Shown: positions 6,628-47,892 of the stretch, one piece after another
Numbering within the stretch: position 1 is the first letter of the stretch
Layout of the letters: the number at the start of each line of letters is the position of its first letter
Notes under the pieces: generated by a model
What the model was told of the DNA's origin: nothing
Seen by the model: the letters and a program-made list of their open reading frames with translations, nothing else
Database searches by the model: none
Assembly: GCA_964621385.1 (NCBI GenBank)
Contig: CAZUMF010000001.1
Span: forward strand, 1 to 54,466
DNA: 54,466 bases
From: an uncultured Desulfohalobiaceae bacterium
GTDB lineage: Bacteria > Desulfobacterota > Desulfovibrionia > Desulfovibrionales > Desulfothermaceae
Direction: 5' to 3'
Position numbers and translations under genes: made by a program

Positions 6628-6637
6628 AGCTTCTTCC

Positions 6638-11378: not shown

Positions 11379-12044
11379 CTATGAGGTTGTATTCCGTTCA
11401 TTGTTCGTGCGCCCCAGCTGAAGCCCTACCAGGATTGTGCCCACACCTTTTTCATTGACCCCTTTGAAATACTTTGTTTTCAAGAAATTGTCCGTCAGAG
11501 TGGACGGGTTGGCAAAAATAACGGCATTGAAGTTTATTAGATGGTTTTTTCCTTCCAGCCTGCACCACTCTGCGGGCAGACAGGGGGTATCAAAATAACA
11601 GGTTTTATCCATCAATTCCTTGGGAAAAGACATTCTGTCCTTATAAATGACAAAACACTCATGCATGAACCAGACGTTTTCTTGGCTTGACAACTTCGAT
11701 CGATCCTCTTCATCCCGCACCTCCTCCCCCACAACTTCATCACCTTTTTTCAATACGAGGCTCGGTAAACGGCCCCAGTCAAAATCCATATTTGTCAAGC
11801 CAACAACGATGTGTGTACACTGGAGGACTTCTCGTAAACCGCTGTTGAAGACTTTGCCCAATCCCATGAGACTTCTCTTTTCCGATTCAGTTTCAATCTC
11901 AAGTATTTTTTGGTGGTCTTCATCCAGGAGGAAAGCAGCCCCGATAATCCCCTTGCTGTTCTGCAAGGCACGAAGTAAGATATCGCTCAAAGAATCATTA
12001 TCCATCATTCCTCCAGGCAAGGTCTTCAGAGATAAAGACCTCAC
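11379..12044 (-). CDS. hypothetical protein coupled to ramA
   Basis: 221-aa ORF whose GTG start overlaps the ramA stop (GTGA). I recognise no domain. Ends in TAG. Confidence 0.4.
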   Translation of the reverse strand: MRSLSLKTLPGGMMDNDSLSDILLRALQNSKGIIGAAFLLDEDHQKILEIETESEKRSLMGLGKVFNSGLREVLQCTHIVVGLTNMDFDWGRLPSLVLKKGDEVVGEEVRDEEDRSKLSSQENVWFMHECFVIYKDRMSFPKELMDKTCYFDTPCLPAEWCRLEGKNHLINFNAVIFANPSTLTDNFLKTKYFKGVNEKGVGTILVGLQLGRTNNERNTTS

Positions 12045-13720
12045 GCCGTGATCAAACTATTCCAGCTAAAGACTTTTTCTTCACAGATCGCCTCGCATCT
12101 CTTACAGGCAATCCCATTGCACAAACCCAACTCTATGGAAATCTCGAAAAGATTCTCTCTTTCCTCCAGTTGAAGCGCCTTTTCCGGACATTCCTCAACA
12201 CAGAGGGCACATCCGATGCATCCAGAAAAAAGAATCTGTTTCTCCTGGCCAATGTCCTCAATGATTCGTAACCCATGAATTCCGGTATCGGCTATGTCTC
12301 TTTTCACCTTTTTGAAAATTTCAACACGGTTGTCTGTTTCTTTCAATCGCGGCAGGCCGAACTTTTTCAGGAAATGCTGGTACTGTCCGTAGGTCATCCC
12401 TTCAGTCCAAAAAGATAATTCCAGGATATACACTTTCTCAAAGACCTTGGATTCGGCGAACATACAATGATGTTGCCTCAGTTGATCCGAAACCCGCTGC
12501 ATGCGGAGGAGTTCATCCTCGTTTTGCAGCAAATCCCTGGCCATGGCCAGGGAGGTGTTCCCCACCTGATAGATCTTTGTTGCTCCGGCCGGAATCAGTC
12601 CCACGTCTTTGGCCTTCAGAGCATCCACATACGTTCCTGAAGCGCCTGACATATAGACTGTCCCGATCTTCTCCAAACCGATGCCCGCTTCATGACACAA
12701 GGCCATATGACCGGCGCGCACCGCCCCAAAAGCCTTTCCGGCTTCAATCACATCTTTGGAGTGAAACCTGACGCTGTTTGGCAAATAAATGTATCCATCC
12801 CTGGTGGCAATTTTTGGAAGCTGAATGAAACCATACTCCATGCCCTGGCTCATGAGGGCGATGACCCCGGTCCCTGTGATACCAACTGCCCGTTCTCCTT
12901 TGTGAAAGAGCTCACCAGTATTCGGGTCAACCGTATCGCCAGGATAGGAAAGCATGTCCTTGCCGAGAACATAGGTTTTCAGCCAACCAGAGACGGATTG
13001 ATCATCCTGATTTTTCCCTGCCGGCCGAGTCTTGGACTCCTTGGCTTCAAAGTCGACATCCGAAATGGCTCCAGGGAGCGCCAGCAGTCCGTCCCCTATC
13101 TGTTGCCCTTCCAAGGCCGGCCCGGCCGCCGTAGACCCTGAGTAGACCCTGCCGTTTGCGATCAAAGCCATTTCAGCATTGGTCCCATAATCAGTGGCAA
13201 TCGCGATTTCATCTTTTTCCAGCATGCCGGTTTGGATCATCATGGCCAAAGCGTCGGCCCCGACCTCATGCCTCACAGCAGGAGGAATCAAGACATCGGC
13301 CTTCGCCGGCAGGTCAAGTCCGCGTATCTGTGAGGTTTTGAACAATCCTCCATCCCTGTTGGGGGGGGTGACTCCCAAGGCCTGGAGTTTGCGTTTCCCG
13401 GCATAGGCCAGATCTCGTATCTCAATTTCCTGAAACAGGGACAGCTGAATGGGGTTTCCGCATACCGCCAGTTTGACAATCGACTCTTTGGCGACACCCA
13501 TGTTTTCAATTAGCTTATTAACGGCCTCCACAACAATCTCGTGGGTCCATTGCAGCCCAACTTCAACAGCGCAATGGAGATGATCCATGACATTGGCCCC
13601 CGGCAAAGGATGACGGGGGGTAACGACGGTCGAAAGGATCAATCCATCCTGCTCGAGATCGACTGCCTGCCCCCTGAATCCACTGGTTCCCAGATCCAAA
13701 GCAATACCAATCTTTGGCAT
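12041..13720 (-). CDS. ramA: methylamine methyltransferase corrinoid protein reductive activase, RamA type
   Basis: 559-aa ORF. The N-terminus IALDLGTSGFRGQ...LAVCGNPIQLSLFQEIEIRDLAYAG...TDYGTNAEMAL closely matches my recollection of Methanosarcina RamA. The C-terminus has two ferredoxin-type Cys clusters (CIGCALCVEECP, CNGIACKRCEAICE). Confidence 0.85.
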   Translation of the reverse strand: MPKIGIALDLGTSGFRGQAVDLEQDGLILSTVVTPRHPLPGANVMDHLHCAVEVGLQWTHEIVVEAVNKLIENMGVAKESIVKLAVCGNPIQLSLFQEIEIRDLAYAGKRKLQALGVTPPNRDGGLFKTSQIRGLDLPAKADVLIPPAVRHEVGADALAMMIQTGMLEKDEIAIATDYGTNAEMALIANGRVYSGSTAAGPALEGQQIGDGLLALPGAISDVDFEAKESKTRPAGKNQDDQSVSGWLKTYVLGKDMLSYPGDTVDPNTGELFHKGERAVGITGTGVIALMSQGMEYGFIQLPKIATRDGYIYLPNSVRFHSKDVIEAGKAFGAVRAGHMALCHEAGIGLEKIGTVYMSGASGTYVDALKAKDVGLIPAGATKIYQVGNTSLAMARDLLQNEDELLRMQRVSDQLRQHHCMFAESKVFEKVYILELSFWTEGMTYGQYQHFLKKFGLPRLKETDNRVEIFKKVKRDIADTGIHGLRIIEDIGQEKQILFSGCIGCALCVEECPEKALQLEERENLFEISIELGLCNGIACKRCEAICEEKVFSWNSLITA

Positions 13721-13900: not shown

Positions 13901-14236
13901 CTATTTCCGATTATGCTGTAAAAGTGAACCATAATGCCGCTTGAAACTGGTGGAAGAATATTTACTCATTTTCCAGTCCGGGACTTTGCACTTTTCACAA
14001 GGTTTCGTAAACCACTTATTTCTGAGCCACCGAGCACCACGGCTGTTTTTTGAATTGTTGACCATGAATTGCATGTTGCAATGAGTGGTGATCCAGGCCT
14101 GTTCTCCTTTCTTTTCGATAGTTCTGATTCCATGAAGGACACCTTTCCGAGAAGGCCAGAGCTTGATTTTGTCAATAAGGCTGAAGAGCTCGACCCTCTT
14201 TCTGTAATACCTCTTGGCTGGTTCACATTTAACCAT
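13901..14236 (-). CDS. pylSn: PylSn, stand-alone N-terminal (tRNA-Pyl-binding) domain of pyrrolysyl-tRNA synthetase
   Basis: LWPSRKGVLHGIRTIEKKGEQAWITTHCNMQFMVNNSKNSRGARWLRNKWFTKPCEKCKVPDW aligns with the N-terminal domain of archaeal PylS (LWMSRTGTIHKIKHH...[28 protein letters not shown]). The ATG at 14236 overlaps the pylD stop (ATGGTTAA). The track ORF start at 14413 is an out-of-context extension. Ends in TAG. Confidence 0.8.
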   Translation of the reverse strand: MVKCEPAKRYYRKRVELFSLIDKIKLWPSRKGVLHGIRTIEKKGEQAWITTHCNMQFMVNNSKNSRGARWLRNKWFTKPCEKCKVPDWKMSKYSSTSFKRHYGSLLQHNRK

Positions 14237-14881
14237 TGGCAATTCTGACCAACATGGTTGCGGTTCCGATCTGCAATGGATCGTGTAAAATCCTCGATCC
14301 TGCTTCAGTGATCCCCTTTTGATCCAGACCAAGGGGCATGCCCGGAGCAGCAATGAACATCTCCCGGGAAATAACTTTGCCAGGGATGACTCCCGCCGCA
14401 TTCGTGGCTTCAAAGACCAATCGGCTCTGCTCCAAAGCTTTTTCCAAATGCTGAGTTATTGGAACCTCCTTTGAACTGATACTGCTCAGTTGTTCAGAAG
14501 CAGTTCGACTCTTGGTCCGGTCCAGATCGTACAGGGAGACATCGGCAAAATTGGGCAATCACTTTTTTTCCTGATTGCTTCCCCCAGTCCGCCAACATCT
14601 GTCTCATGGGCTACAAAAGCCGGACAACCTAAATATGCAGCGATCGAACAGACGGCTTCTGAAAAACCTGGAAGCGAACCCTGACCACTGGTTATTGGTA
14701 TAACAGCTGTGTGTAGGGTGGTCGAAAAGAATGGTGCATGCCACCTGCAAGTACGCGATTTTTCTTTACCCGGCTCTGGATTATCAGACTGATTCCTGAG
14801 CTATTTTTCAAATTGACTAATCAATCTTTTTAATAATTCCAGAATAATACAAAGAAGGTTTTTAACACTTCTTCCTTTCAT
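14229..14881 (-). pseudogene. pylD: pylD (3-methylornithyl-N6-L-lysine dehydrogenase), apparently disrupted
   Basis: The C-terminal frame (14229..14558) reads FEATNAAGVIPGK...PLQIGTATML, like the PylD C-terminus. A different frame upstream (14561..14881) reads AVIPITSGQGSLPGFSEAV...DVGGLGEAIRKK, like the PylD N-terminal domain. The two frames need a 1-nt correction near 14545..14563. An in-frame TAG lies at 14801..14803 with no start codon after it. No GxGxxG loop is visible, and the total is ~217 codons. Confidence 0.65.
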
Positions 14882-15034
14882 AATTCTTCATAATTATTGT
14901 TTAACGGTTTCGCTCTGCTTTGTCAACACGTGGCTGAGTATCTAAAGGGACTAGCTTCAATCTGAGCATTTTGTCTCATAGGACCGAACCCTTTTTGGAG
15001 TGTTCCTTCATACTTAAGAGTTAGCGAAAGTATT

Positions 15035-16048: not shown

Positions 16049-16099
16049 TGCCTCCTCTGTTGAAATACGTTCATATGTTCAACCCACCACGAAAAGACC

Positions 16100-18592: not shown

Positions 18593-18703
18593 GCCAGCTG
18601 CGAAAAATGTCCGGGCCCCCTCCTCGAGGGGGCCTTCCGGCCGGGACCCTGCCCTGCCGGCCCGTGTTCACCGAGTCGACGTCCAGCAAAAAAGGGTTGC
18701 CCT

Positions 18704-19771: not shown

Positions 19772-19789
19772 GCCCGGAGGTATGCCCCG

Positions 19790-20662: not shown

Positions 20663-20747
20663 CCAGGCGGACTTCATTCGGCCGGGGGACATAGACCCCT
20701 ATCGACATCGCCGCATGTCTGAACCTTATCGAACTTGGGGAGAAACC

Positions 20748-21557
20748 ATGAAACAGGACTGGGATTTCAAAAGCATCGCCTTCAACTGTCTGTTGGCCGT
20801 GGTCCTGATCATCCTGCTGGCGCCGCTGCTCATCGTCTTCATCAGTTCGTTCCTGGACAAGGCCCACTTGAGCTGGCCCTTCAATGACTTCACCTTCAGG
20901 TGGTACCTGGAGGTCTTCAAACGGGATATCTGGGTCAAGGCCCTGATGAACAGCCTGATCGTCGCCGGATTGACCACCCTGTTCACCCTGCTCCTCTGCA
21001 CCCCGGCCGCCTACGCCATCACCCGCAGGACCAACCGCTTCACCGAGTTCCTGCGGACCTTTTTCATGAGCCCCATCATGATTCCCCCGGTGATGATCGG
21101 GATCTCCCTGCTCATCTTTCTCAGCAACTTCGGGATTCGCGGCTCCTATCTCGATCTCGCCCTGGGGCACACCCTCTGGGCCGGTCCCATCGTGTTCATC
21201 ACCATGATCGCGGTCTTTGAACGCTTCAATCCGATTTACGCTTACGCCGCCCAGGATCTCGGGGCCAACTCCCTGGAGATCTTCTGGCAGATCACCCTGC
21301 CCATGGTCAAACCCGGACTCATCGCCTCCATTTTCCTCTCCTTTGTGCTCTCCACCCAGGAGTTCATCATCGGGCTCTTTCTCTACACCCCGAAAACCAT
21401 CATTCTCCCGGTGGAGATCTATACCGCGATCCGCTATGAGCTCAGTCCCGCGATTTCCGCCATCTCGGTCTATCTGGTGGGTATCGTGATCATCGGCCTG
21501 TTTGTCATCGACCGAATGATCGGCATTGAAAACGTTTCCTTTTCCGGCAAGGGATGA
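20748..21557 (+). CDS. ABC transporter permease (PotC-like)
   Basis: Hydrophobic ORF. The ATG at 20748 is preceded by ggggaga. The track ORF start at 20523 overlaps the previous gene and reads as low-complexity sequence. Confidence 0.85.
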   Translation: MKQDWDFKSIAFNCLLAVVLIILLAPLLIVFISSFLDKAHLSWPFNDFTFRWYLEVFKRDIWVKALMNSLIVAGLTTLFTLLLCTPAAYAITRRTNRFTEFLRTFFMSPIMIPPVMIGISLLIFLSNFGIRGSYLDLALGHTLWAGPIVFITMIAVFERFNPIYAYAAQDLGANSLEIFWQITLPMVKPGLIASIFLSFVLSTQEFIIGLFLYTPKTIILPVEIYTAIRYELSPAISAISVYLVGIVIIGLFVIDRMIGIENVSFSGKG

Positions 21558-21603
21558 ACCCGCCCTGGCCGAACCCAGCAACAGGGGCTGAACGAGGCAG
21601 ACC

Positions 21604-23049
21604 ATGATGAACATCGAAAACCTGGCAGACAGCCTGTCCTGGCAAGAAACCGTGGACGTCGTTGTCGTGGGCAGCGGTTTCGCCGGGCTGGCCGCGGCCA
21701 TCGAGGCCAGGACCGCCGGCTGTTCCGTGCTCATCCTGGAAAAAATGAAAGGATACGGGGGCAACTCGGTCATCAGCGACGGCGCGGTGGCCGCGGCGGG
21801 AACGGCTATGCAGCAGCGCCAGGGCATTACCGATTCGAAAGAACAGATGCTCCGGGACATGCTCCGGGCCGGGCTGTCTCTGAATCATCCCGAACTGGCC
21901 CGGACCGTGGCCGAACACTCCAAGGACGCCCTGGAATGGAGCATCGCCTTAGGGGCCAGATACCAGGGCCGCGTCCAGGCCTTCGGGGGACACAGCCAGC
22001 CCAGGAGCCATCTCGCCCACCGCACCAGCGGATTTTCCATCATCAAGCCCATGCTCTCCACCTGCCGGGATCTCGGCCTGGACATCGCCACCCAGCATAA
22101 ACTTCAGCGCCTGATCCGCAATGAACAGGGGCGCGTCTGCGGGGTCCGGATTCGGGAGGGCTACACCTATCCGGACCGCAACAGCGGGGTCCCCAAAAAC
22201 ATCAAGGCCAGGCTGGGCGTGATGCTGGCCGCCGGCGGCTTTGGCAACGACCTCCCTCTCCGCCGGACCCAGGTTCCGGATCTGAACGAAGCCGTGGACA
22301 GCACCAACAAGCCCTCCACCACCGGCGAGGTCCTGCGTCAGGCCATGGCCGTCGGGGCCATGCCGGTCCATCTTTCCTGGATCCAGCTCGGCCCCTGGGG
22401 CTGCCCTGATGAAAAAGGTTACGGGCTAGGTCCGGGCTTCGCCTCCTACATTGCCATGCTCTATGGAATCACCGTGAACCCGGCCACTGGCCGGCGTTTC
22501 ATGAGCGAAACAGCGGATCGCAAGACTCGAACAGAGGCCCTTTTCCAGATCGGCCGGCCCTGTGTCTGCATCGCGGACAGCATGGGAGTCAGACAATCCG
22601 GCTTCAGCCTCGACAAATGCCTGGACAAAGGGGTGGTCCGGGAGTTTACAGACCTGCCCGCACTGGCGGCGGCCTTTGATATCCCGGAATCCCAGCTGAA
22701 GGAAAGCATCCAGGCCTACAACAGCGCAGTCTCCCAGGGGACGCCAGACCCCCTGGGCAAGACCATTCACCCCAGGAGTGCTCCCCTGGAGCACCCGCCA
22801 TATTTTGCCATGCGGATCTGGCCCAAGGTGCACCACACCATGGGTGGGGTGCAGATCGACACCCTGGCCCAGGTCCTGGACACCAAGCAACGGGTCATCC
22901 CAGGACTGTTCGCCGCCGGGGAAATCACCGGGGGGATCCACGGGGCCTGCCGCCTGGGCAGCTGCGCCATCACCGACTGCCTGGTGTTCGGGCGAATCGC
23001 CGGAAAAACCGCAGCCCGGACTAAACAAGACACCCTCCGGACAGCCTGA
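21604..23049 (+). CDS. FAD-dependent oxidoreductase, soluble fumarate reductase / flavocytochrome c flavoprotein family
   Basis: 481-aa ORF with an N-terminal dinucleotide fold (VDVVVVGSGFAGLAAAIEA), the HHTMGG motif and C-terminal GLFAAGEITGGIHGACRLG. Confidence 0.8.
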   Translation: MMNIENLADSLSWQETVDVVVVGSGFAGLAAAIEARTAGCSVLILEKMKGYGGNSVISDGAVAAAGTAMQQRQGITDSKEQMLRDMLRAGLSLNHPELARTVAEHSKDALEWSIALGARYQGRVQAFGGHSQPRSHLAHRTSGFSIIKPMLSTCRDLGLDIATQHKLQRLIRNEQGRVCGVRIREGYTYPDRNSGVPKNIKARLGVMLAAGGFGNDLPLRRTQVPDLNEAVDSTNKPSTTGEVLRQAMAVGAMPVHLSWIQLGPWGCPDEKGYGLGPGFASYIAMLYGITVNPATGRRFMSETADRKTRTEALFQIGRPCVCIADSMGVRQSGFSLDKCLDKGVVREFTDLPALAAAFDIPESQLKESIQAYNSAVSQGTPDPLGKTIHPRSAPLEHPPYFAMRIWPKVHHTMGGVQIDTLAQVLDTKQRVIPGLFAAGEITGGIHGACRLGSCAITDCLVFGRIAGKTAARTKQDTLRTA

Positions 23050-23383: not shown

Positions 23384-23444
23384 GGGGGGACTGTTGAGTT
23401 CAACGCCATGTTTGACAACTGTAAATGAAAACAGGAGGAAGTGT

Positions 23445-24917
23445 ATGCGACGCAATCTGCACGCCGGGAAACGACCCAACAGGGGGCTGCGCTTTGAGGT
23501 TTTCAGTGCTGACGACCTTGAAGACATCCACTTCGCCACCCTGGAAATCCTTGAAAAGACAGGGTTGTATTTTGCGGATGACCAAGCTCTGGAGATCCTG
23601 CATGGAGCCGGGGCTGTGATCGACAAAACCAGGAAGGTGGCCAAAATTCCCCCTTACGTGGTGGAAGAGGCCATCAGGTCGGCCCCTTCAAAGCTGGTTC
23701 TGGCCGGGCGCAATCCTGAAAACGACTTTGTCATGGAGGGCGGCCGGGTCGGTTTCACCAATTTCGGGGAAGGGGTCTTCATCAATGATCCCTATAGCGG
23801 CGAACACCGCAAAACCACCAAGGCAGACGTGGCTTCTTCCGCCCTGCTGGCGGATTACCTGTCTGAAATCGATGTCTATGAACGGGCCGTGGGCGCTGAA
23901 GACACCCCGGCTGCATCCGTTCAGTTGCACAATGCCGAAGCCTGGATGCCCAATACCTCCAAACACGGGTTTATGGGGCCTGGCAACGGCTACCTGCTGC
24001 ACAAGATCGTGGACATGGCCGCGGCAGCTGCTGGGGGGAAGGACAAACTGCAAGAGCGGCCCCTGGTCAGCTTTATCACCTGCCCGGTCAGCCCCCTGAA
24101 ACTGGAAAAGGACACCTGCGAGATCATCATGGAGGCGGCCCGTTCCGGGATGGCGGTCAACATCCTGTCCATGGCCATGGCCGGTGGTTCCTCACCCGTG
24201 ACCCTGGCCGGGACCCTGGTGGACCACAACGCCGAAATCCTGGGCGGCATCGTCCTCAGCCAAGCCACCCGCAAAGGGGCCAAAGTCGTTTACGGCAGTT
24301 CGACCACAGCCATGGATCTGCGTTTTGCCGCGGCCATGGTCGGCTGCCCGGAATGCGGGGTCATCAACGCCGGCGTGGCCCAGCTGGCCCGCTACTATCT
24401 TTTGCCCAGCTGGGTCGCGGGCGGGTAGGGCGACAGCAAGGTTTGCGATGCCCAGTCCGGTCATGAAAAAACCATCACTGGCCTGTTACCGGCGTTGGCA
24501 GGTGCCAACCTGATTTACGGCCTGGGAATGATCGAAATGGGCATGACCATCGATTACGGCCAACTGGTCATGGACAATGAATTCGCCAGAATGATCAAAC
24601 ATGCGGTCCAGGGGGTCCCGGTGAGTGACGAGACCCTGGCCGTAGAGGTCATGCGGGAGATCGGCATTGGCAAGGACTACCTCAGCCATGAACACACGTA
24701 CCGCCACATGAGGTCCCAGTCCCAGTCCCAGTTGATCGATCGCAGAACCCGGGAATACTGGGAAACCAATGGGGGCATGGATATTTTCCAGCGCTCCATG
24801 GAGCAGGCCAGATACATCCTGGAACATCACCGACCCGAGCCCATTGCAGACAGCGCTTTGGCTGAAATACGCCTGATTGTCGAGGAGGCTGAAAAAGAAC
24901 TGGGGGTTGGGCAGTGA
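23445..24917 (+). CDS. mttB: trimethylamine:corrinoid methyltransferase MttB with an in-frame UAG (pyrrolysine) at 24426..24428
   Basis: Track ORFs 23394..24428 and 24495..24917 share a frame and are separated only by TAG. The joined product is 490 aa, MttB-like throughout. SD aggagga lies before ATG 23445. Terminates in TGA. Confidence 0.9.
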
Positions 24918-25042
24918 TCGTTGATCTGATTGAGATCAAGCCCTATCTTGTAGACTCTAAGTGCTCTGATTCGTAAGTTCGGTGGCGTATTCTCTATCAG
25001 TCCAATCGAACGAAGGAGGTGGGTTCTGACTTTGTAAATCCG

Positions 25043-25063
25043 AAATCCGAATATCGGATTTTT
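25043..25063 (+). terminator. weak AT-rich hairpin with T-run downstream of mttB
   Basis: AAATCCGA / TCGGATTT stem with a 3-nt loop, followed by extra T residues. The stem is short and AT-rich. Confidence 0.3.
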
Positions 25064-25194
25064 CAGCGTCGCTTCCGATTCCAATAGCGAACATGCTCTT
25101 GGCATTGCAATGTCATAGTATTTACGACTGCGTGTACTAAGTTTCAGCACAAAACAGCATTCAGGTATCAAAATCCAGGTCTTAGGAGGATAGC

Positions 25195-26589
25195 ATGGGA
25201 AAGATCCGAACCCGTTTTGGTGACGGTTTTCCGCTTGAGCTCAGCTCAAAGGAACTCCGTCAGGATTTGGAGGAAGGCACTGCCGAGGCTGCGGACAGGG
25301 GGTCCATCGCCACGCTGGCAGAAGATGAGCTGCGCCATCTCGAGGATATTTTCACCTCAGCCCACCGTTTTATCGGCGTCGAGCCTGGAAAGGAAATCAT
25401 CCTGAGCTATGACGGGGCCCCTTTGAAGATGAAACGGGCCCAGGTCAATGTGGACCGGGTTCAGGCCCTGCAGATCTATGAAAAACTTCTGGGGGCGGAC
25501 ACTCTGGAATTGGCGCATGTCGATTACAGCTATAAGCCGGTCAAGCCGATTGTCACCTTTGAACAGCCACTGCTGGAACAGGTCTTTTCCGTGACCACGG
25601 CCCCGGTTTTTTACGGAGCCATGCCCAACTTAGGCCTTTACAGCCAACCGGACGGACCCTTCCCCAATCCGGCTGAACTCCTGCCTCTGGGCAAAATCAA
25701 GGAAGCCCGGGAAGCATCCGAGGCTGCGGTGGAGAATGCGGTCAAGGATATCGTCTATATTGGCAGACGCATGATTGAATCCGGGGCTGACGGGATCAAT
25801 CTCGACACGACCGGTGCTGCTGGTGACGCGGATTTTCAGGCCGCTCTTCTGGCCACTGAACAACTCAGGGCCAAATATCCCACGGTCTGCATTGAACTGG
25901 GCATGTCCGGGGAGTTTGTCCTTGGCATGCACGGTGGGTTGACCTATAAAGGGGAGCGTCTGGCCCTGATGTATCCCCACCAGCAGGTTAAAATGGCCGA
26001 AGCGGCCGGGGCGACCATCTTCGGCCCGGTCGCCAACACTAAGCCCAGCCGGTCGGTTCCCTGGAATCTGGCCAGGACAACGACCTACATGAAGGCCTGC
26101 TGCGAAGTGGCCACGATCCCTGTTCATCCGAATATGGGCATGGGGGTCGGCGGCATGCCCCTCACCGATCATCCGCCGCTTGATGTGGCCTCCAGAGCTT
26201 CCAAGGCGATGGTGGAGATCTGCCGGCTGGATGGGTTGTAGGTAGGGGTCGGCGATCCCATGGGTATGGCCATCACACATGCCGTTGCTTCGGGAATGGG
26301 CGGAATGAGGACAGCCGGAGATCTGGTTGCCCGCATGCAGATGACCCGGGGCATGAAAATCAAGGAAGCCAAAGCGCATGTGGCCGGAAAACTGAAGTGC
26401 TCGGTCTCTGATCTGACCGACCCGATCCTCATGCAAGAGGCCAGGGACGAACTCAAACTCGGGGTTCTCCATCCCTACGCCGGTTCTCCCAAGTGCATGG
26501 AGGCCAAGTTCAACATCGCAGCCCTTTTAGATATCGACATCAATTGCGTGAACCGTTTCCGCAACAATCTCAACCCAGGCTCGCTGTAA
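25195..26589 (+). CDS. mtbB: dimethylamine:corrinoid methyltransferase MtbB with an in-frame UAG (pyrrolysine) at 26239..26241
   Basis: Track ORFs 25195..26241 and 26260..26589 share a frame and are separated only by TAG. The joined product is 464 aa. The context [20 protein letters not shown] is as in MtbB. Terminates in TAA. Confidence 0.9.
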
Positions 26590-26614: not shown

Positions 26615-28051
26615 ATGCAGCCGAATCATTACGACATGCTCTCCCTTGAGGATGTGCAGCAAATCCATGATGCGTCCCTTCAGGTCCTGCAACAAACTGG
26701 ACTGGCAGTGGACCATACGGGCGCCAGACAGATTCTGGCTGATGCGGGCGCTGCGATCGAAGCCAGGGGCAATCGGGTCTTCATTCCTGCGGATCTGGTC
26801 GAATCAGCCCTAGCCAAGGCCCCGAAAAATTTCATTTGCGCCGGGCGAAGTGCGGAATACGACATGTTGGTCAGCAGCGACCAGTCCCATGCGCCTGTTG
26901 CCCGGAGCGTGGGAGGGCCTTTGAATTGTTTCGATTTTTCAAGTCATCAATCCCGCCAACTCACGATCCATGACTGTGCTGATCTGGCCCGCATGGTCGA
27001 TGCCCTGCCCAATCTGAATATCTGCGGCGGGCTATCTCCTCAGGATATTCCACAACAAACCTATGACATTGAGACCTTAAAGGTTTTATTGGAATATGGA
27101 AGAAAACACATCTGGGCCTTGACCACAGGATCCGCGAATCTCAAATATCAGCTGGAAATGATGGAAGTGGTCAGCGGCGGCAAGTTCGAACTGCAGCAAA
27201 GGCCTATCTGCAGCGGCATCGTCTGTCTCATCGAGCCCCTCCGCTTTCCCAGAGACGAAATCGAGAGGCTCCTGCTCTATGGTCGCTACAACCTCCCGGT
27301 GCGCGTTCCGCTCGTACCCATGGTCGGGGCCAATTCGCCCTACACCCTGGCTGGGACCATGGTCCAGACCAATGCCGAAGCCTTGGGAAGTCTGACTATC
27401 CTGCAAACCCTCTGTCCCGGCATTCCAACCTGGTACTACGTGATTATGGAGACCATGGAGATGCGCAAAGGATCCATGCAGTTGTTCAACCCTGAAGTCC
27501 TGCTGATTCTCAATGGCTTGTACCAGATGGCCCGCTATTATCAGCTTCCTGCGGTTGCTTCAGCCTTGATCGGCTCCAACTGCCAACCCCAGCAGATCAT
27601 GTTCGAACGCGGCACGAGCCTGTTCTTAACCGCATTGGCAGGGGTGAGCGAGATAGGCGGCGTGGGTGGTGTGGGCAATGGCATGATGATCAGTCCCCAG
27701 CTCCTGGCCATAGATAATGAAATGATCGCCTTTGTGAAACGTTTTCTCGAAGGATTTGAAATCAGTACTGACACCTTGGCTGTAGATGTCATCAATCGAG
27801 TTGGACACAGCGGGAAGTTTCTGGAAGACATACATACCCTGACCCATTTACGCAAAGAGATTCGTTTCAGGCCGAATCTGTTTGACTGGCGACCCTTTGT
27901 GGAACAGGGGACAGATGAAAAAACCATCTATCAACGCGCCCAGGAAACAATCGAGGCCATCCGTAAGGACCATGAGGTGGAGCCTCTGGAAGCGGAACAG
28001 CAAAGAGAACTCCACACCATCCTCTCAGCAGCTCAGCGAGATCTATTGTGA
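26615..28051 (+). CDS. MttB-superfamily methyltransferase without pyrrolysine (quaternary-amine-type paralogue)
   Basis: Uninterrupted 478-aa ORF that is MttB-like from the N-terminus (LSLEDVQQIHDASLQVLQQTGL) to the C-terminus, with no in-frame TAG. Confidence 0.85.
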   Translation: MQPNHYDMLSLEDVQQIHDASLQVLQQTGLAVDHTGARQILADAGAAIEARGNRVFIPADLVESALAKAPKNFICAGRSAEYDMLVSSDQSHAPVARSVGGPLNCFDFSSHQSRQLTIHDCADLARMVDALPNLNICGGLSPQDIPQQTYDIETLKVLLEYGRKHIWALTTGSANLKYQLEMMEVVSGGKFELQQRPICSGIVCLIEPLRFPRDEIERLLLYGRYNLPVRVPLVPMVGANSPYTLAGTMVQTNAEALGSLTILQTLCPGIPTWYYVIMETMEMRKGSMQLFNPEVLLILNGLYQMARYYQLPAVASALIGSNCQPQQIMFERGTSLFLTALAGVSEIGGVGGVGNGMMISPQLLAIDNEMIAFVKRFLEGFEISTDTLAVDVINRVGHSGKFLEDIHTLTHLRKEIRFRPNLFDWRPFVEQGTDEKTIYQRAQETIEAIRKDHEVEPLEAEQQRELHTILSAAQRDLL

Positions 28052-28511
28052 ATCCCTCGTATGAAACTTCATGTTAAATGACTCAAACTGGAGTTTCTTT
28101 TTGATCAAACTGGCAGTTGTGGACTTCAACCCAATAGATCAACAGCTTAGCCGTATATGACGATATATATAAACAATTATATGTCAGGCCTGCCAGAGGC
28201 AGGGCTGACACCTGATGCTGACTGCGAGTGTTCTCATGTTCAGTGTCCGCCGCCGGATTCTTCGCTCGAAGGTTGATACCGAACGTAAGATCCCTTCGTG
28301 ACTGCATCTGAAATCCCCAGTCATATTTCAACTCACGATGCTTTCGTCGTCTGAAATACGATTTTACGAGTGTAAGGGGACTATTTTTTTTTTCTCCCTT
28401 GACTCCATTGATATTTTTTGAGAATACTCAAGTAAGAGTACAATGATCAAAAGCTGTCCCTTTATGGATACATTCTCAAAAAAATGAATACCTTATCAAG
28501 GAGGTGAAACA

Positions 28512-29156
28512 ATGGACAAGAACGAGTATTTGGAGAAGGCCTCAAAAGCGATTCTAGAAGCTGATGAGGAAGAGGCCGTGAAATTAGCAGAAGCGTATTT
28601 GGAGGAGGGACTTGATCCAACGGAAATGATCGAGAACGGTCTTTCCGCCGGGATCATGAAGCTGGGAGATCTCTTTGACCGGGGAGAAGTCGTGCTTCCT
28701 CATGTCATTATTGCCTCCGAGGCTATGACAGCTGCGGTAAAAATTCTTGAAAAGGGTATGCCTGCTGAAGAAAAAGGGAAAAAAAAGGCAAAGGTCGTTT
28801 TGGGCACTGTGGAAGGGGACGTGCACGATATCGGCAAAGGCATTGTATCAACCATGTTAAAAGTCTATGGGTATGAGATTTTTGATCTGGGACGGGACGT
28901 CCCCATCGAGGAGTTTGTGGAAAAAGCCAAAGAAGTCAAGGCCGATGTGGTTGGTTCCTCGGCCTTGATGACGACCACTCAGGCCGGACAAAAAATCCTG
29001 GAAAAATCATTGAAGGAGGCTGGGATTCGAGAAAACATCAAAACCATGGTCGGTGGAGCGGCCACCACGGATCACTGGGCCGAAAAGATCGGAGCTGATT
29101 TTTGGGCTGAGAACGCAAGTGATACAGTGATGAAGCTGAATGAAATTTTTGACTAA
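28512..29156 (+). CDS. mtbC: corrinoid protein (MtbC-like by position)
   Basis: 214-aa ORF with a cap domain and a B12-binding domain carrying [10 protein letters not shown]. It lies 14 nt upstream of mtbB copy 2. The symbol is assigned from adjacency only. Confidence 0.85.
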
Positions 29157-29170: not shown

Positions 29171-30571
29171 ATGGCCAAACACCTGACCAGACGGGGTGAC
29201 GGGGCATTCATTGAGATGAGCGCCGGCGAAATCATGAGAGACTTGGAGGAAGGGACTGCAGACGCTGCAGACAGGGGGAAAATCCCCCCTCTTTCTAAAG
29301 AAGAACTGGAAAAACTTCGAGATATCTTTTGCGATCCGGCCAAGTTTGTCAGCGTGGAACCGGGCAAAGAAGTGCCGCTGACTCATGATATCGGCACCTT
29401 GCGAGTGATGGGCGACCAGGGAAACAGTGGCGTTGGAATCCCCTTGAGCCGTGTTCAAGGCATCCAGGTGCACGAAAGGGCACTGTGCGCCGATACCATG
29501 GAGTTGGGGCATATCGACTACAGCTTCAAGCCTGTCAAACCGGTCATTGCCATGGAACAACAGGAGTTGGAAAACGCTTTGTTGTCTACGGTTCTGCCGC
29601 TCTTTTACGGAGCCATGCCCAATCTCGGGACGTACTATGAGCCCGACGGACCTTTCGGAAATCCTTCGGATTTGCTGCCAGCAGGCAAAATCAAGGAGGC
29701 TTACGCAGCTCAAGAAGGAGCAGTGGAACACGCAACACGAGACATGATCTTTGTCAGCGAAAAACTTGCAGAAGTCGGTTGCGATGGGATCAACATCGAC
29801 ACGACAGGGGCTGCCGGCGACACAGACTTTAAAGCCACCCTGCACGCTGTTGAACATCTCAAAAAGCATACGAAAATGTGCATTGAGGTTGGTATGGCGG
29901 GCGAATTTGTCCTGGGGATGCATGGAGGCCTCGAATATGACGGGAAAAAGCTCCATGGACTGTATTGCCATCAACAGGTAGAATTGGTTGAGAAATCAGG
30001 TGCGGATATTTTTGGGCCAGTGGTGAATACGAAACCGAGCAGATCCATGCCTTGGAATCTGGCCAGGGCGGTCACATTCATCAAAAAAACTGTGGAAACA
30101 TCCAATATCCCCATCCATGTGAATATGGGTATGGGGGTCGGCGGTTCACCTGTATTTGAGACCCCTCCCATTGACTCTGTGAGCAGGGCCTCCAAGGCGA
30201 TGGTGGAAATAGCCGGCGTAGACGGGTTGTAGGTAGGTGTGGGAGACCCCATGGGGATGTCTATAGCTCATGCAGTGGCAGCGGGAATGGGTGGAATCAG
30301 GACCGCCGGAGACCTGGTGGCCCGCATGCAGATGACCCGCAAGATGCGGATCAATGATGCAAAAGCCTACGTTGCCGAAAAGCTTCAGTTGTCCCCATTT
30401 GACCTGTCAGACGTCCACGTAATGAGAGAGGTCCGCGAGGAGCGAGACATCGGAATCATTACTTCAGTCCCAGGTTGTGCCAAGGGAATCGAGGCCAAGG
30501 CTCGCATCGCCGAGTTGCTCGATATCGAGATTGCAGGGGTAACGCGTCTCAAGGAAAAAATGAAACTGTAA
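29171..30571 (+). CDS. mtbB: dimethylamine:corrinoid methyltransferase MtbB (copy 2) with an in-frame UAG (pyrrolysine) at 30230..30232
   Basis: Track ORFs 29171..30232 and 30239..30571 share a frame and are separated only by TAG. The joined product is 466 aa. [45 protein letters not shown] matches my recollection of Methanosarcina MtbB. Terminates in TAA. Confidence 0.9.
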
Positions 30572-33460: not shown

Positions 33461-34555
33461 ATGCACACAACCTCAACATATCTTTCTACCATTCTTGAAA
33501 AGGCAACAAAAGGTTCAAGAATTTCCCGTAAGGAGACGACGTATCTGTTGTCGCTGAGAGACCCCGAAGCCATCCAACGAGTGATATCGACCGCCCGTGA
33601 CGTTTGCCGGCAGAACTTTGGGAACAGTGTTTTTTTATACGGGTTCATCTATTTTTCAACATATTGCCGCAATCAATGTGCTTTTTGCTTTTATCGGCAA
33701 TCCAATACCCGCAGTCCGCGGTATCGGAAAAACCTGGACGAAGTGGTGCGTACAGCCTGTTATCTGGTTGATTCCGGGGTTCATCTGGTTGACCTGACCA
33801 TGGGTGAAGATCCCCTGCTTCATGAATCGGGTTTTCAAAGGCTTCTCCAGATTATAGCCCGGATAAAACAGAAAACAGGCATTCCCATCATGGTTTCCCC
33901 GGGTGTCGTGCCCGACGATCTGTTCAAGGAGTTTACGAAGCTTGAGGTTGACTGGTATGCATTGTATCAGGAGACGCACAACCCGACACTTTTTCAGAAG
34001 CTGCGGATCAATCAGGACTATGAGATCCGGAACAAGAAAAGAATCACAGCTCAGCAGGCCGGCATGCTCGTCGAAGACGGGATACTGATAGGAATCGGGG
34101 AGAGTGTTGCTGATCGAGCAGATTCAATCATGACCATGAAACGCAGCCTTTTGGATCAGGTTCGAGTCATGAGCTTTGTGCCCCAACCTGAAACTCCCTT
34201 GGCCAGAACACATACCTTACCCAGAATCAATGAAATCTTGTGTATAGCCGCGATGCGTCTGGCTATGCCGGATCAACTGATCCCAGCTTCCTTAGATGTA
34301 GACGGATTGGAAGGACTCAAGATGCGCTTGGAAGCAGGAGCGAACGTGGTCACTTCGATCATTCCTCCCAGCAATACGTTAGCCGGTGTCGCCCAAACTT
34401 CTCTGGATGTGGAAGAAGGCCGACGCTCGGTGCGTGAAGTGACGAAAATTCTGTCTCAGATGGATCTGGTCCCTGCCAGCAGAGAGGACTATGAATACTG
34501 GATCAAAGAGAGGAAAAAAACACAGCCCACGTCCTTGGAGGTGATCATGACCTAA
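33461..34555 (+). CDS. pylB: PylB, radical-SAM 3-methylornithine synthase
   Basis: 364-aa ORF. FGNSVFLYGFIYFSTYCRNQCAFCFY, VDLTMGEDP, ALYQETHNPTLFQKLR, VEDGILIGIGES, VRVMSFVPQPETPL and LIPASLDVDGLEGLKMRLEAGANVVTSIIPP track my recollection of Methanosarcina PylB block by block. Confidence 0.85.
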   Translation: MHTTSTYLSTILEKATKGSRISRKETTYLLSLRDPEAIQRVISTARDVCRQNFGNSVFLYGFIYFSTYCRNQCAFCFYRQSNTRSPRYRKNLDEVVRTACYLVDSGVHLVDLTMGEDPLLHESGFQRLLQIIARIKQKTGIPIMVSPGVVPDDLFKEFTKLEVDWYALYQETHNPTLFQKLRINQDYEIRNKKRITAQQAGMLVEDGILIGIGESVADRADSIMTMKRSLLDQVRVMSFVPQPETPLARTHTLPRINEILCIAAMRLAMPDQLIPASLDVDGLEGLKMRLEAGANVVTSIIPPSNTLAGVAQTSLDVEEGRRSVREVTKILSQMDLVPASREDYEYWIKERKKTQPTSLEVIMT

Positions 34556-42971: not shown

Positions 42972-44450
42972 TCAAGCCGCTGCCTCCCGTTCTTTGGCCT
43001 CGGCCTCCTCGACAATCGACCTCAATTTCGACAGGACTTCAGCCGGCAGTTCAGTGACCTTGTGTTTTTCCAGAATCTCTCGGGCCCTCTCACCGGCCAC
43101 CTCGGCCAGATCCTTGCCTCCGCGTTTCTGCCACGCACCCCGCATCCTGCGGTCAATCAACTTCACTTTTGACTGCTCCGTTCCCATATACTGTCTGGTG
43201 TGTTTCTGGGCCAGAAAGTCCTTACCCGAGCCTACCTTCTTGATCAGTTCAACCGCCAAGGTGTCATCTGACACATTGACTCCTTGAACCACTCGCTTGA
43301 CCATGGCGGCAATCTCATTATCCATGACGAGCTGGGCAAAACTGAAGGTCACCCCCAGTTCCAGCATGCCCATCCCATAGATCAGATTCGCCCCGGCCAA
43401 GGCAGGCAACAGGGAAGTGATGGTTTTTTCGTGTCCGGCCTGAGCATCGGACACTTTGCTGTCTGCCTAATTCCCCGCCACATAACTTGGCAACCGGTAG
43501 TAACGGGCCAGTCCCGCCACACCCGCACTGAGCATGCCCAGCTCCGGAGCGCCGACTGGAGCCGTGGCATAGGTCAGGTCAAAGGTTGTTGTGGAACTGC
43601 CGTAAATCAGCGGGGCCCCTTTGGCCGTCAGCTGACTCAAGACGACACCAGCCAAGACCTCAGCATTGTGCGTGACCAGAGTACCGGCCACAGAAACCGG
43701 TGAGGAACCCCCTGACATGGCCATGGACAATACATTGCAAGGCATCCCGGCCCGGGCGCATTCGATGATGATCTCCGCATTGGCAGCGTGGAGCTCCAAG
43801 GGACTTGTCGGACAGATAAGGGCCGAAACGAGCGGTCTTTCCCTGAGCTTATCAGGGCCTCCCACAATCTCGGCCGCCATTTCAAAGAACTTTTTCGCCC
43901 CTTCACCGCCCGAGAGATCGATGTGCTGGCAATGCTTGCAGGTGTTGGTCAAGAAAGCCTCGGCCTCATTGAGGTCCGTGGCCAAATCCTTATCCCTGGC
44001 CACGACAGCACTGGAATACACATCAACATGTTCCAGGGCATCACAGGCCAGGGCTGTCCAGCCCACGTCCTTTTTGTTGGATTCTCGAAGTTCACCGTTA
44101 TACGGGTCCACCATCATTACTCCGGCCCCGAAGCTGGTAAAGCCCACCCGGCCCCCTTGCAGGGTCACGTCGTATTCAGGGGTTCTGCCTGCCATCAAAA
44201 TAGTGCTGGGGGCTGAAGAAATGGCATCCTCCACCAGGTAAGACGGAATCTTCACATGTTTGTTCTCCCAGTCAACAATCGCTCCACCACCATCGAATAT
44301 TTTCAGGGCTTCTTCACTATAAACCCCGACCCCGTAATTCTGAAGAACATCCAGGGTCGCCAGATGGATTTCGTTGAGCTGGTCGTCCGTGAACATGCTC
44401 AGACCCCAACCTTCCTGAGTGCTTATGCCAGGTTGAAGTCCTCGAATCAT
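42972..44450 (-). CDS. mttB: trimethylamine:corrinoid methyltransferase MttB (copy 2) with an in-frame UAG (pyrrolysine) at 43467..43469
   Basis: Track ORFs 43467..44528 and 42972..43454 share a frame and are separated only by TAG. The start is taken at MIRGLQ (44450), preceded by aaaggaggtg-N5. The joined product is 492 aa. Terminates in TGA. Confidence 0.9.
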
Positions 44451-44585: not shown

Positions 44586-45230
44586 TTACTTGATGAGTTC
44601 TTTGGCCTTGGGCACCGCATCATTTGCATCTTCTGCATAGCAGTCCGCGCCGATCTTGTCGGCCCAGTCCTGAGTTGCTGCCGCACCGCCGATCATGGTT
44701 TTGACTTTGTCTCGTATCCCGGCCTTTTTCAGTTCTTCCTCAACCTGTTTCTGACCAATCATGGTCGTGGTCATCAGAGCCGAGGAGCCGACAATGTCGG
44801 CGTTTAACTCCTTGGCCTTCTCCACAAAGACATTGATCGGCACATCCCTGCCGAGATCCGTCACTTCGAAACCATAGACCCGAAGGATGGTGCACAGAAT
44901 CCGCTTGCCGATATCGTGTATGTCTCCTTCGACCGTTCCGATCACGGCTCTGGCAAGGGGTTCGACAACCTCGTCCTTGGGTATGTGGGGCTCTAAGATC
45001 TCGATGGCCTTGGTCATGGCCTCTGCTGCCACCAGAACCCCGGGAAGTGGAATTTCTTCGTTGGCAAAACCTTCCCCGACTTCCGTCATCCCTGCAGAAA
45101 AGCCTTCATTGATGATTTCAAGTGGGCTTATGCCTTCTGCAAGGACCTGGTTGGCCACTGCTGCAGCCATGTCTTCGTCACCATCCAACAAAGCCTGTTT
45201 GCTTTTTTTCAACAAATCTTCTTTGCTCAC
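44586..45230 (-). CDS. mttC: corrinoid protein (MttC-like by position)
   Basis: 214-aa ORF with a cap domain and a B12-binding domain carrying GDIHDIGKRI. It lies directly upstream of mttB copy 2. The symbol is assigned from adjacency only. Confidence 0.85.
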   Translation of the reverse strand: MSKEDLLKKSKQALLDGDEDMAAAVANQVLAEGISPLEIINEGFSAGMTEVGEGFANEEIPLPGVLVAAEAMTKAIEILEPHIPKDEVVEPLARAVIGTVEGDIHDIGKRILCTILRVYGFEVTDLGRDVPINVFVEKAKELNADIVGSSALMTTTMIGQKQVEEELKKAGIRDKVKTMIGGAAATQDWADKIGADCYAEDANDAVPKAKELIK

Positions 45231-45842: not shown

Positions 45843-47240
45843 TTAGAGTTTGAATTCAAAGCCGATGCCTTCCATGGTCTTAATAGCCTGATCCAAAACA
45901 TCGAAGTGTTCTTTCGTGGGCATCAATGACTTCACGTCATAACACTCCTGAAAGGTCTTGCCCTTGGGGGCCTCTCTGAACTTGGTCTCGTAGAGGCTGA
46001 CCAGTTTGTCCAGCATGGAGTTTACTTTATCTGTTTCAACCCCGGCCACTGCTCTGGCGGCATAAGCCATAAAACGGGCTTCAATGGCTGTCGTCTTGTC
46101 GCGGGCAACACCCTTGGCTGAGGCACAGCCGCTCATTATTTCCATGCCGCTGGCCGTATCCGTGATGGCCTGGGCTGCTGCCTCCAAAAGGCACATCTCA
46201 GTGCAGGGTCCGGCAGAAGTGTAGTACTGATTTCCTAAAAGCAGATGTGTATGCTTATCAACGGCCCGGCAGGCATGTCCGGCGACCATCAACGGCTCCC
46301 TGGCCGTTGTATTGCCCCAGCGCACATGAATAGGACCGTCCAGATGCCAGTCGGCGCCGACCATGATGAATGCGGCGAGGTGGGTGGCCACGTTCACGAT
46401 TGAGGTCTCCTCGACCCCACCGGCCCAGCCACCGATAATCGGCATCTGTTCGCTCATGATGATGTTGCCTGCCAGTTTGTAATGGGCCGTAAAAGCGAGC
46501 GCGTTGATGTCAATCTTGAGTTCATTCAACTGGCTCACCTCGTGGCTGTCACACGGTCTCATGCCCTCTGGGAAATCGGCGGCGATCACTCCTGCGGCAG
46601 TCAGAGAAGTTTCGCTCCCCTACATGGCCATGCCGGGCCGACCGGCCCGGGTCATTGCAGCCCGAATCTGGGAGACCTCGCCTTTGACAGCGGCTATTTC
46701 CCATGGAGATCCGGGTTTGGGCTCTCTCCCGTTGATGGTGGCCAAGACCCCGTTAACGATGGTATCCACCAGGGGCTCCCGGGCAAAAGCTTCATGCATG
46801 GCGATGAAGCAGTCCTCGGAAACAGGCGCTCCGGTGGGTCCACCTTGGCACAGGGGTGGTATTGGGCTGTCGAACCTTCTGGGCGCCAACCGCCGTGCAT
46901 CACGACCCTCACCAAGGGTCAATTCTTTGGGGGCGCCGGCAACGGCCAGCAGGACCTCCTCTTCGGTGTACTTGATGATCCTGCCTGTATCCATGCAGTA
47001 GACACCCATCTCTACAAGCATCTCCAGACCGGCCTGAAACAGGCGATCAAGCATGTCCTCATCAGTGGGGATGATCTTGGTCCGGTCGAATTGCAGTTTG
47101 TACTTCTTTTTCAACTTGTTGGCGGTTTGGAACGTCACCTTTTGATCCCATTCCTTTTCGTCCATCCGTGGTCCGGTGCGTGCTCGATCATAGGTCTCGA
47201 ACACGCCCACTTTGTCTCTGAAGCGAGTAAAGCCCATCAT
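45843..47240 (-). CDS. mtmB: monomethylamine:corrinoid methyltransferase MtmB with an in-frame UAG (pyrrolysine) at 46620..46622
   Basis: Track ORFs 46620..47240 and 45843..46589 share a frame and are separated only by TAG. RAGRPGMAM-O-GSETSLTAAG and DSHEVSQLNELKID, HLDGPIHVRWG, GPCTEMCLLEAAAQAITDTASG and GKTFQECYDVK match my recollection of Methanosarcina MtmB. The joined product is 465 aa. Terminates in TAA. Confidence 0.9.
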
Positions 47241-47250: not shown

Positions 47251-47892
47251 TTATTTACTGATCAATTCCGTAATGAGTTCCACTCCGGCGGCGGCGTTTT
47301 CTCCCCAGCCATCCCCGCCGATCATGTCCACCCAGTCCTGAGTTGTCGGGGCCCCGCCAAAGACGCACTTGAATCTGTCCCGCAGACCGCGTTCCTTCAG
47401 GGCATCGATGATGTCCCTCTGTCCCGGCATGGTCGTCGTCATCAGGGCCGATCCTGTGATACAATCCACATCGTTGTCCACGGCCGCATCGATCACTTGA
47501 TCCGCAGGCACATCCCGCCCCAGATCGATGGCATCGTATCCATTGGCCTGCAGGAGAATGGTGAAAATACCCTTGCCGATATCGTGGATATCACCCTCCA
47601 CCGTATGGACCACGACCTTGCCTTTGGCTGAATATCCACCCTTGATTTGCGCCGCCAGGACATCCACCGCCGCTGTGAAGGCTTCGGCCGACAGGACAAT
47701 CTGCGGCACATAGATCTCGGCCCGGTCGAATCGGTCGCTGATTTCCTTCATGGCCGCGGAAAGTCCGTTTTCTATGCACTCAAGGGGATCAAGTCCTTGG
47801 GCCAGTGCCTCGTTCGCCGCCGCAACGGCTGCATCTGTGTCCATATCCAAGACACAACTCTTCAAACGCTCGAACATTTCTTGTGAACTCAT
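47251..47892 (-). CDS. mtmC: corrinoid protein (MtmC-like by position)
   Basis: 213-aa ORF with a cap domain and a B12-binding domain carrying GDIHDIGKGI. It lies 10 nt upstream of mtmB. The symbol is assigned from adjacency only. Confidence 0.85.
   Translation of the reverse strand: MSSQEMFERLKSCVLDMDTDAAVAAANEALAQGLDPLECIENGLSAAMKEISDRFDRAEIYVPQIVLSAEAFTAAVDVLAAQIKGGYSAKGKVVVHTVEGDIHDIGKGIFTILLQANGYDAIDLGRDVPADQVIDAAVDNDVDCITGSALMTTTMPGQRDIIDALKERGLRDRFKCVFGGAPTTQDWVDMIGGDGWGENAAAGVELITELISK

Follow-up and report, generated by a model that had tools for sequence, protein, structure and literature searches.

In MttB, the trimethylamine:corrinoid methyltransferase of Methanosarcina barkeri, pyrrolysine (Pyl) is the catalytic residue, and the active-site residues are Gly110, Met249, Pyl334 and Tyr364, of which Gly110 and Tyr364 are described as fully conserved (PMC9842639). 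Genes for Pyl-type MttB have already been documented in Deltaproteobacteria, both in the delta-1 symbiont of Olavius algarvensis (PMC1976440) and in Deltaproteobacteria of marine sediment (PMC8318568). The MttB superfamily also has members without UAG or Pyl, e.g. the glycine betaine methyltransferase MtgB (PDB 2QNE/9YCE), which belong to the same fold family and whose substrates are quaternary amines. Here we describe a stretch of 54,466 nucleotides (nt) from an uncultured Desulfohalobiaceae bacterium (contig CAZUMF010000001.1 of assembly GCA_964621385.1), the whole of which is called the window below. The window has a G+C content of 51% and represents a bacterial island of methylamine genes, with its relatives among metagenome-assembled genomes (MAGs) of Desulfohalobiaceae. 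Positions 23445-24917 are one mttB gene for a trimethylamine:corrinoid methyltransferase of the Pyl-dependent type, and we consider it likely that its codon 328, a UAG, is read as Pyl and that the missing pyl genes lie outside the window. The arrangement is well known, the genetic-code phenomenon is textbook and the host is an uncultured sulfate-reducer-like bacterium. Like the Deltaproteobacteria cited above, the window combines a Desulfobacterota-type host and a conserved in-frame UAG and tail with the co-occurrence of ramA, corrinoid proteins and pyl genes. It differs from them in its lineage, which is closest to the Desulfohalobiaceae MAGs, in having all three types of methylamine methyltransferase in one 54 kb island, and in that the pyl genes are scattered and one of them is decayed.

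The gene, called mttB copy 1 below, begins with the ATG at 23445-23447 and is terminated by the TGA at 24915-24917. A first-pass annotation, made from the sequence alone, had joined the open reading frames (ORFs) 23394..24428 and 24495..24917 into one protein. Both are present in the mechanical ORF list and share one frame, the stop-free bridge between the TAG and 24495 is exactly 22 codons long, and the coordinates and the translation agree with a gene of 490 amino acids (aa) that runs from an ATG preceded by a Shine-Dalgarno site, through the TAG at 24426..24428, to a TGA. The translation has 490 sense positions with codon 328 as the single internal stop. The claim that a second mttB copy carries its TAG at the same codon number was borne out, as it is codon 328 in both copies, and the flanks quoted for the two sites, VAGG-O-GDSKVCDAQSGHEK in copy 1 and VAGN-O-ADSKVSDAQAGHEK in copy 2, are exact to the letter. 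Copy 2 is a real gene at 42972..44450, but its strand had been left unstated; it is on the minus strand, and translation of the plus strand gives nonsense. A G follows directly 3' of UAG328 and likewise of the other three internal TAGs that were checked. Exact-protein look-ups of the 327-aa N-terminal ORF of MttB, of the window PylSn and of the second MtaA-like protein returned no record, and therefore the TAG is without independent confirmation from another assembly. For detection of the residue by proteomics, a lysine adduct of +237 Da had been proposed. That figure is in error, as 237 Da is the residue mass of Pyl, which exceeds that of lysine by about 109 Da.

With the stop masked, both copies score above the cutoff of TIGR02369, the NCBIfam equivalog model for Pyl-type trimethylamine-corrinoid methyltransferase in the family PF06253; copy 1 has 746.2 bits and copy 2 has 728.9 bits against a cutoff of 525. 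This upholds the assignment of the gene to the Pyl-type family. The best PDB match of copy 1 is M. barkeri MttB (7XCL/7XCM), which is matched over its full length (residues 3-485, E 1.1e-117). In this alignment the masked codon X328 falls on X334 of 7xcl and on K334 of the mutant 7xcm, so that the comparison proposed in the first-pass annotation, of the joined translation with M. barkeri MttB, places the TAG column on Pyl334. The counterparts of Gly110, Met249, Pyl334 and Tyr364 in copy 1 are G108, M243, UAG328 and Y358, and the equivalents of G108, M243 and Y358 are also present in copy 2. Since Tyr358 lies 3' of the UAG, a product truncated at the UAG would be without it. The likeness to M. 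barkeri MttB (7XCL/7XCM/7XCN; PMC9842639) thus includes full-length homology, the position of the UAG on Pyl334, the conservation of Gly110, Met249 and Tyr364, and a corrinoid protein with a DxHxxG motif as partner. Unlike M. barkeri, the host of the window is bacterial, as seen from the Shine-Dalgarno site, a solute-binding protein with a twin-arginine translocation (TAT) signal and the split pylSn. In place of Thr111 of M. barkeri MttB, copy 1 has Glu109 and copy 2 has Ala; what has been implicated of this residue, however, is its backbone alone. Coenzyme M is an unlikely downstream methyl acceptor in the host of the window. The non-Pyl members of the superfamily match copy 1 with an E value of 7.5e-70 and fall below the TIGR02369 cutoff (361 vs 525 bits). 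One such paralogue is present in the window at 26615-28051; it is 30% identical to copy 1, lies in the same operon between mtbB copy 1 and the pair of mtbC and mtbB copy 2, and its probable role is methyl transfer from a quaternary amine or some other substrate.

Relatives were collected by scanning a single genome for each GTDB species, which gave 27 loci, 25 of them spanning the UAG site. The closest are in two Desulfohalobiaceae MAGs, JAIPDR01 (locus L002) and JAABTT01 (locus L003), whose proteins are 94% and 93% identical, respectively, to copy 1 over codons 1-327 at about 85% nucleotide identity, and the next-closest mttB loci are from MAGs of Desulfobacterales, Thermodesulfobacteriota and Thermoleophilia. 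Both Desulfohalobiaceae orthologues have the TAG in the same place, and both share synteny with the window in the ABC (ATP-binding cassette) transporter genes upstream and in mtbB downstream, JAABTT01 also in the gene for a flavin adenine dinucleotide (FAD) oxidoreductase; they come from different species than the window organism (dS about 0.7-1.0). The aligned codon is TAG in all 25 relatives that span the site and, where the contig allows, the frame stays open for about 162 codons past it in every one of them. The ratio of nonsynonymous to synonymous substitution (dN/dS) after the TAG was 0.086 against JAIPDR01 and 0.111 against JAABTT01, compared to 0.05 before the TAG (dS 0.7-1.0), and therefore the tail is kept as protein. 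The two copies within the window are only 54% identical to each other and are old paralogues and not the result of a recent duplication. A TAG column common to both paralogues, to 25 of 25 relatives and to Pyl334 is far beyond chance, and these comparisons show that the internal UAG is the conserved catalytic Pyl codon and that the 162 codons past it are retained as protein-coding.

That the TAG arose in an mttB with an ordinary sense codon, by chance mutation or through an error of sequencing or assembly, which would make the gene a pseudogene or an artefact, has for it the bare presence of a stop codon and nothing more. The same codon stands in the same column in a paralogue of 54% identity, in all 25 relatives and at Pyl334, and the tail is under purifying selection; this explanation has already been refuted and we give it next to no credence. 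The conserved column and the selected tail exclude in the same way a split enzyme without Pyl, in which the gene would yield two polypeptides, one of 327 aa ending at the TAG and one of 140 aa starting from the TTG at 24495. Both pieces do appear in the mechanical ORF list, but the 22 bridging codons (GDSKVCDAQSGHEKTITGLLPAL), which would then be left untranslated, are among the most conserved of the family, no ribosome-binding site is evident 5' of 24495, and the non-Pyl members of the superfamily, such as that at 26615-28051, are single chains. The likelihood of such a split enzyme is therefore close to nil.

An Rfam PYLIS_3 match begins at the TAG of each mttB copy, with 77.2 bits in copy 1 and 80.8 bits in copy 2 against a gathering threshold of 38. 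The PYLIS_3 model has merely 8 base pairs, of which 2 are non-canonical in the sequence of the window. When the 100 nt from the UAG were folded, no stable structure was found, as the minimum free energy was -32.6 kcal/mol compared to a mean of -31.5 kcal/mol for shuffled sequences (z = -0.30), and there was no covariation past the UAG, the RNAalifold term being 0 across 17 homologues. With a fold no better than that of shuffles and zero covariation, PYLIS as a functional read-through structure was rejected. The match is conserved coding sequence at the Pyl site and not an RNA insertion structure, and a dedicated downstream RNA structure appears not to be needed.

What the first-pass annotation overlooked, although its reading of the gene stood, is a partial Pyl machinery inside the window. 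Of the pyl genes, pylB and pylSn are present in intact form and pylD as a decayed remnant, and the window lacks pylT, pylSc and pylC. The pylB gene stands alone behind genes for MoxR-AAA and VWA proteins and is divergent, being only 48% identical to pylB of the closest relative MAG. The pylSn gene, whose own terminator is TAG, follows directly on the pylD remnant. This remnant is in two frames, has no start codon and is frameshifted near 14543-14558. It matches only positions 50-101 and 170-265 of the 266 positions of the TIGR03911 profile and covers residues 57-105 and 161-272 of the intact PylD of a related locus (L015); about 55 N-terminal residues and the Rossmann GxGxxG segment are gone, and about 190 nt are absent relative to pylD of another related locus (L030). 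An independent Logan contig (L042) reproduces 14428-17662 at 100% and, therefore, the frameshift and the deletion are not peculiar to this assembly. Two parts of the window, 2071-14315 and 14428-17662, are covered at 100% identity by Logan contigs of the run SRR12088347, which leave 112 nt of the remnant (14316-14427) uncovered, and this gap is the pattern expected from a second, similar pylD in the sample, which makes it a weak hint that one exists.

Several observations weigh against the Pyl-dependent reading of mttB. The only pylD in the window is the decayed remnant. No pylT was found in the 54 kb by ARAGORN, by a scan for the CUCUAAA loop and stem pattern or at the Rfam gathering threshold, and ARAGORN does detect tRNA-Pyl in 12 related loci. 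Searches by tblastn found no pylSc (with PylSc from L015 and L034) and no pylC in the window. No PylD at least 60% identical to that of the closest relative (seeds L030 and L034) was found in a collection of 5.8 billion proteins, and therefore an intact pylD in the window organism is not demonstrated. TAG is an ordinary terminator of 7 of the 46 definable genes in the window (about 15%), pylSn included. There is no corrinoid gene directly adjoining mttB copy 1, the nearest on the same strand being that at 28512-29156, which is 3.6 kb downstream. Finally, translation, Pyl incorporation and enzyme activity of mttB are themselves predicted from sequence.

As the relatives show, the pyl genes of this lineage are scattered across several loci (L030, L034, L004 and L015). 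In L030 the order is histidine kinase, response regulator, intact pylD, pylSn, RamA, hypothetical gene and pylT, and this is syntenic with the remnant, pylSn, RamA and hypothetical gene of the window. The closest relative MAG, JAIPDR01, has pylSc, pylB, pylT, pylC, pylD and pylSn on contig JAIPDR010000187 (L034); thus a complete pyl set is visible on another contig of that MAG whereas no such set is visible for the window organism. From this complete set it follows that the decoding capacity of the window organism is probably located outside the window, and pylT, pylSc and pylC may be sited there. The hypothetical gene in these arrangements, directly downstream of the RamA-like activase, codes for a protein of about 205-221 aa without a Pfam or NCBIfam match (11379-12044 on the minus strand of the window, 5997-6614 in L030), and in L030 the next gene after it is pylT.

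It is also conceivable that the gene family is assigned correctly but that Pyl synthesis has been lost, so that UAG328 terminates translation and the five UAG-containing methyltransferase genes of the window are recently silenced relics or need Pyl from outside. In support of such a loss, the pylD remnant is frameshifted and without its Rossmann segment or start, as the independent Logan assembly also has it, pylT, pylSc and pylC are absent from the 54 kb, no close PylD homologue was found elsewhere, and TAG is regularly used as a stop. On the other hand, all five UAG genes have fully intact downstream frames, and pylB and pylSn are intact as well. As the pyl genes of the lineage are scattered, little can be concluded from the lack of some of them in a single stretch of 54 kb. 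Together with pylC and pylSn, an intact pylD is found on a contig from a sibling run (L039, SRR12088348), though this contig is not assignable to the window genome, and the Logan contig breaks around 14316-14427 as expected from a second similar pylD. We therefore regard the loss of Pyl synthesis as unlikely. We hold it equally improbable that the decayed pylD is the only one of the organism, leaving five intact UAG methyltransferase genes without Pyl synthesis of its own. If it were true, this bacterium would be caught while the 22nd amino acid was being lost from it, or else would depend on its neighbours for Pyl or a precursor; in the case of scavenging, pylB and pylSn would be kept, along with pylT and pylSc elsewhere.

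The absence of tRNA-Pyl from the window would also fit with UAG328 being read as a canonical amino acid by a near-cognate or suppressor tRNA, which would give a full-length protein free of Pyl. There is, however, no other suppressor tRNA in the window either, pylB and pylSn have been retained intact, and Pyl is the catalytic residue of MttB (PMC9842639). We consider such suppression very improbable.

As for the use of TAG as a terminator, none of the five UAG methyltransferase genes ends in TAG, and readthrough of the genes that do would add only 1-22 codons. Because TAG still ends about 15% of the window genes, decoding of UAG as Pyl is probably competitive or conditional and not a full reassignment. 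Conditional UAG decoding is known from Acetohalobium arabaticum, another bacterium that has methylamine methyltransferases of the Pyl type and still uses TAG as an ordinary stop for many genes. Among the relatives, mttB of nine loci from Desulfobacterales and related MAGs (L004-L008, L013-L015 and L025) uses TAG at the Pyl position and again as its final stop, so that TAG serves two roles inside one gene there.

If UAG328 is read as Pyl, the following pathway can be proposed. Pyl would be made from lysine by PylB, PylC and PylD, and tRNA-Pyl with the anticodon CUA would be charged by the split bacterial synthetase PylSc plus PylSn; the assumption here is that genes for the tRNA, PylSc, PylC and a functional PylD are present in the genome outside the window. 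When Pyl-tRNA is available the ribosome would read UAG328 as Pyl and complete a TIM-barrel enzyme of 490 residues. The imine of Pyl would bind trimethylamine, aided by Tyr358 and the backbone of Gly108, and the methyl group would be transferred to Co(I) in a corrinoid protein of the MttC type, whose active state would be maintained by activases of the RamA/RACo type. The methyl group would then be passed on by MtaA-like or MtrH-like methyltransferases of the same island. The host of these MtaA-like and MtrH-like genes is presumably without coenzyme M.

The genes and elements of the island are collected in Table 1. Five methyltransferase genes contain UAG (two mttB, two mtbB and one mtmB), and the four other than mttB copy 1 each have one in-frame TAG at the expected place with an intact downstream frame. 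Standard gene callers split mttB copy 1 and these four neighbouring genes at the UAG, as seen in the gene calls of Logan and of the MAGs, and therefore the ability of this Desulfohalobiaceae-related lineage to use methylamines is understated. In ecological terms, the window adds another sulfate-reducer-like lineage that could be a competitor of methanogens for tri-, di- and monomethylamine. The main value of the analysis is the correct annotation of five split genes and the flag on a partly decayed pyl locus, and a possible new lesson is limited to scattered, partly decayed pyl genes beside fully intact Pyl-dependent enzymes.

Table 1. Features of the methylamine island in the 54,466-nt window, with the evidence for each
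Feature	Position	Strand	Evidence or remark
mttB copy 1, trimethylamine:corrinoid methyltransferase	23445..24917	+	490 codons including UAG328; TIGR02369 and 7XCL matches
Shine-Dalgarno AGGAGG	23433..23438	+	6 nt 5' of the ATG; read directly
In-frame UAG, codon 328, predicted pyrrolysine codon	24426..24428	+	Aligns with Pyl334 of M. barkeri MttB
Post-UAG coding segment, 162 codons, carries Tyr358 (= Tyr364 of M. barkeri)	24429..24914	+	dN/dS
Rfam PYLIS_3 (RF02510) match	24426..24525	+	77.2 bits; starts exactly at the TAG
mtbB copy 1 (dimethylamine methyltransferase), UAG 26239-26241	25195..26589	+	Pfam Dimeth_Pyl, PYLIS_2, translation
Non-pyrrolysine MttB-superfamily paralogue, single chain	26615..28051	+	TIGR02369 360.6 bits, fails cutoff 525
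Corrinoid protein, mtbC-like	28512..29156	+	DVHDIG motif
mtbB copy 2, UAG 30230-30232	29171..30571	+	Pfam, PYLIS, translation
pylB (methylornithine synthase), intact	33461..34555	+	TIGR03910 457 bits vs cutoff 348; CRNQCAFC radical-SAM motif (CxxxCxxC)
mttB copy 2, 492 positions, UAG codon 328 at 43467-43469	42972..44450	-	TIGR02369 729 bits; PYLIS_3 at 43370-43469
mttC-type corrinoid protein, directly upstream of mttB copy 2	44586..45230	-	Pfam B12-binding, B12-binding_2; DIHDIG cobalt-ligand motif
mtmB (monomethylamine methyltransferase), UAG 46620-46622, codon 207	45843..47240	-	Aligns with Pyl202 of 1L2Q/1NTH
mtmC-type corrinoid protein	47251..47892	-	Motif and domain matches
RamA/RACo-type corrinoid reductive activase, downstream of pylSn	12041..13720	-	Pfam RACo_C_ter, Raco_middle, Fer4
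pylSn, small N-terminal tRNA-binding subunit of bacterial pyrrolysyl-tRNA synthetase, intact, 111 aa	13901..14236	-	TIGR03912 129 bits vs cutoff 51
pylD remnant (pseudogene)	14232..14800	-	TIGR03911 114 bits, below cutoff 150; directly upstream of pylSn
Three MtaA/MtbA-like (URO-D family) methylcobamide methyltransferase homologues	2097-3143, 15035-16048, 34705-35760	-	
MtrH-like gene	7386-8339	-	

The window has four full-length corrinoid proteins with DxHxxG motifs and two RACo/RamA-type activases. Between mtmB and mttC there is also a 146-aa ORF at 45343-45783 on the minus strand whose only domain is the B12-binding_2 cap and which lacks a DxHxxG motif; this is a truncated form of a corrinoid protein and possibly another decaying gene. 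A 1146-aa fusion protein encoded at 3187-6627 on the minus strand combines a 2Fe-2S ferredoxin, the RACo linker, the RACo middle domain and the RACo C-terminal ASKHA domain with an inserted module of Fer4_20 and pyridine-nucleotide-disulphide oxidoreductase, and it looks like a corrinoid reductive activase joined to an oxidoreductase of the NAD(P)H type. Directly upstream of mttB copy 1, at 17483-23049 on the plus strand, are the genes of a PotD-like ABC transporter (binding protein, ATPase and two permeases) and of a 481-aa FAD_binding_2 oxidoreductase. The transporter genes match the loci of both Desulfohalobiaceae MAGs and the oxidoreductase region matches that of JAABTT01 (L003); transporter and oxidoreductase may belong to the mttB operon, e.g. 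for uptake of methylamines. One of the ABC transporters of the island has a binding protein with a TAT signal. A cobalamin riboswitch (98.6 bits) at 36932-37161 on the minus strand lies upstream of a tetrapyrrole methylase gene (36035-36943), and the island also has cobalamin-related genes. Two DUF2284 genes gave NCBIfam selenoprotein matches, and their extension by selenocysteine was rejected because of the many stop codons in the frames upstream.

Logan contigs of the run SRR12088347 match parts of the window at 100% identity, and a repeat search of the whole window gave paralogous coding similarity only. Just 3' of mttB copy 1, at 24955-25066 on the plus strand, there is an intergenic element of about 105 nt that is 83% identical to positions 4899-5002 of L034, which follow the corrinoid gene of that MAG's pyl cluster, L034 being from the closest relative. 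The element ends in a small hairpin and a T-run (TCCGA-ATA-TCGGA-TTTTT), has no Rfam match and was found in just two copies among the sequences compared. A GC-rich palindromic hairpin, TGTCAGCCCTGCCTCTGGCAGGCCTGACA, is recurrent, being present at 28182-28210 of the window, at 246 and 4170 of L034 and at 11461 of L003. A stretch of 41 nt in the window that matches the region directly 3' of pylT in L034 proved to be this hairpin and not a tRNA. In the relatives the hairpin stands directly after pylT, pylB and mttB, a Logan contig (L001) begins within it, and it is probably a terminator or a repeat of this lineage like the repetitive extragenic palindromic (REP) elements.

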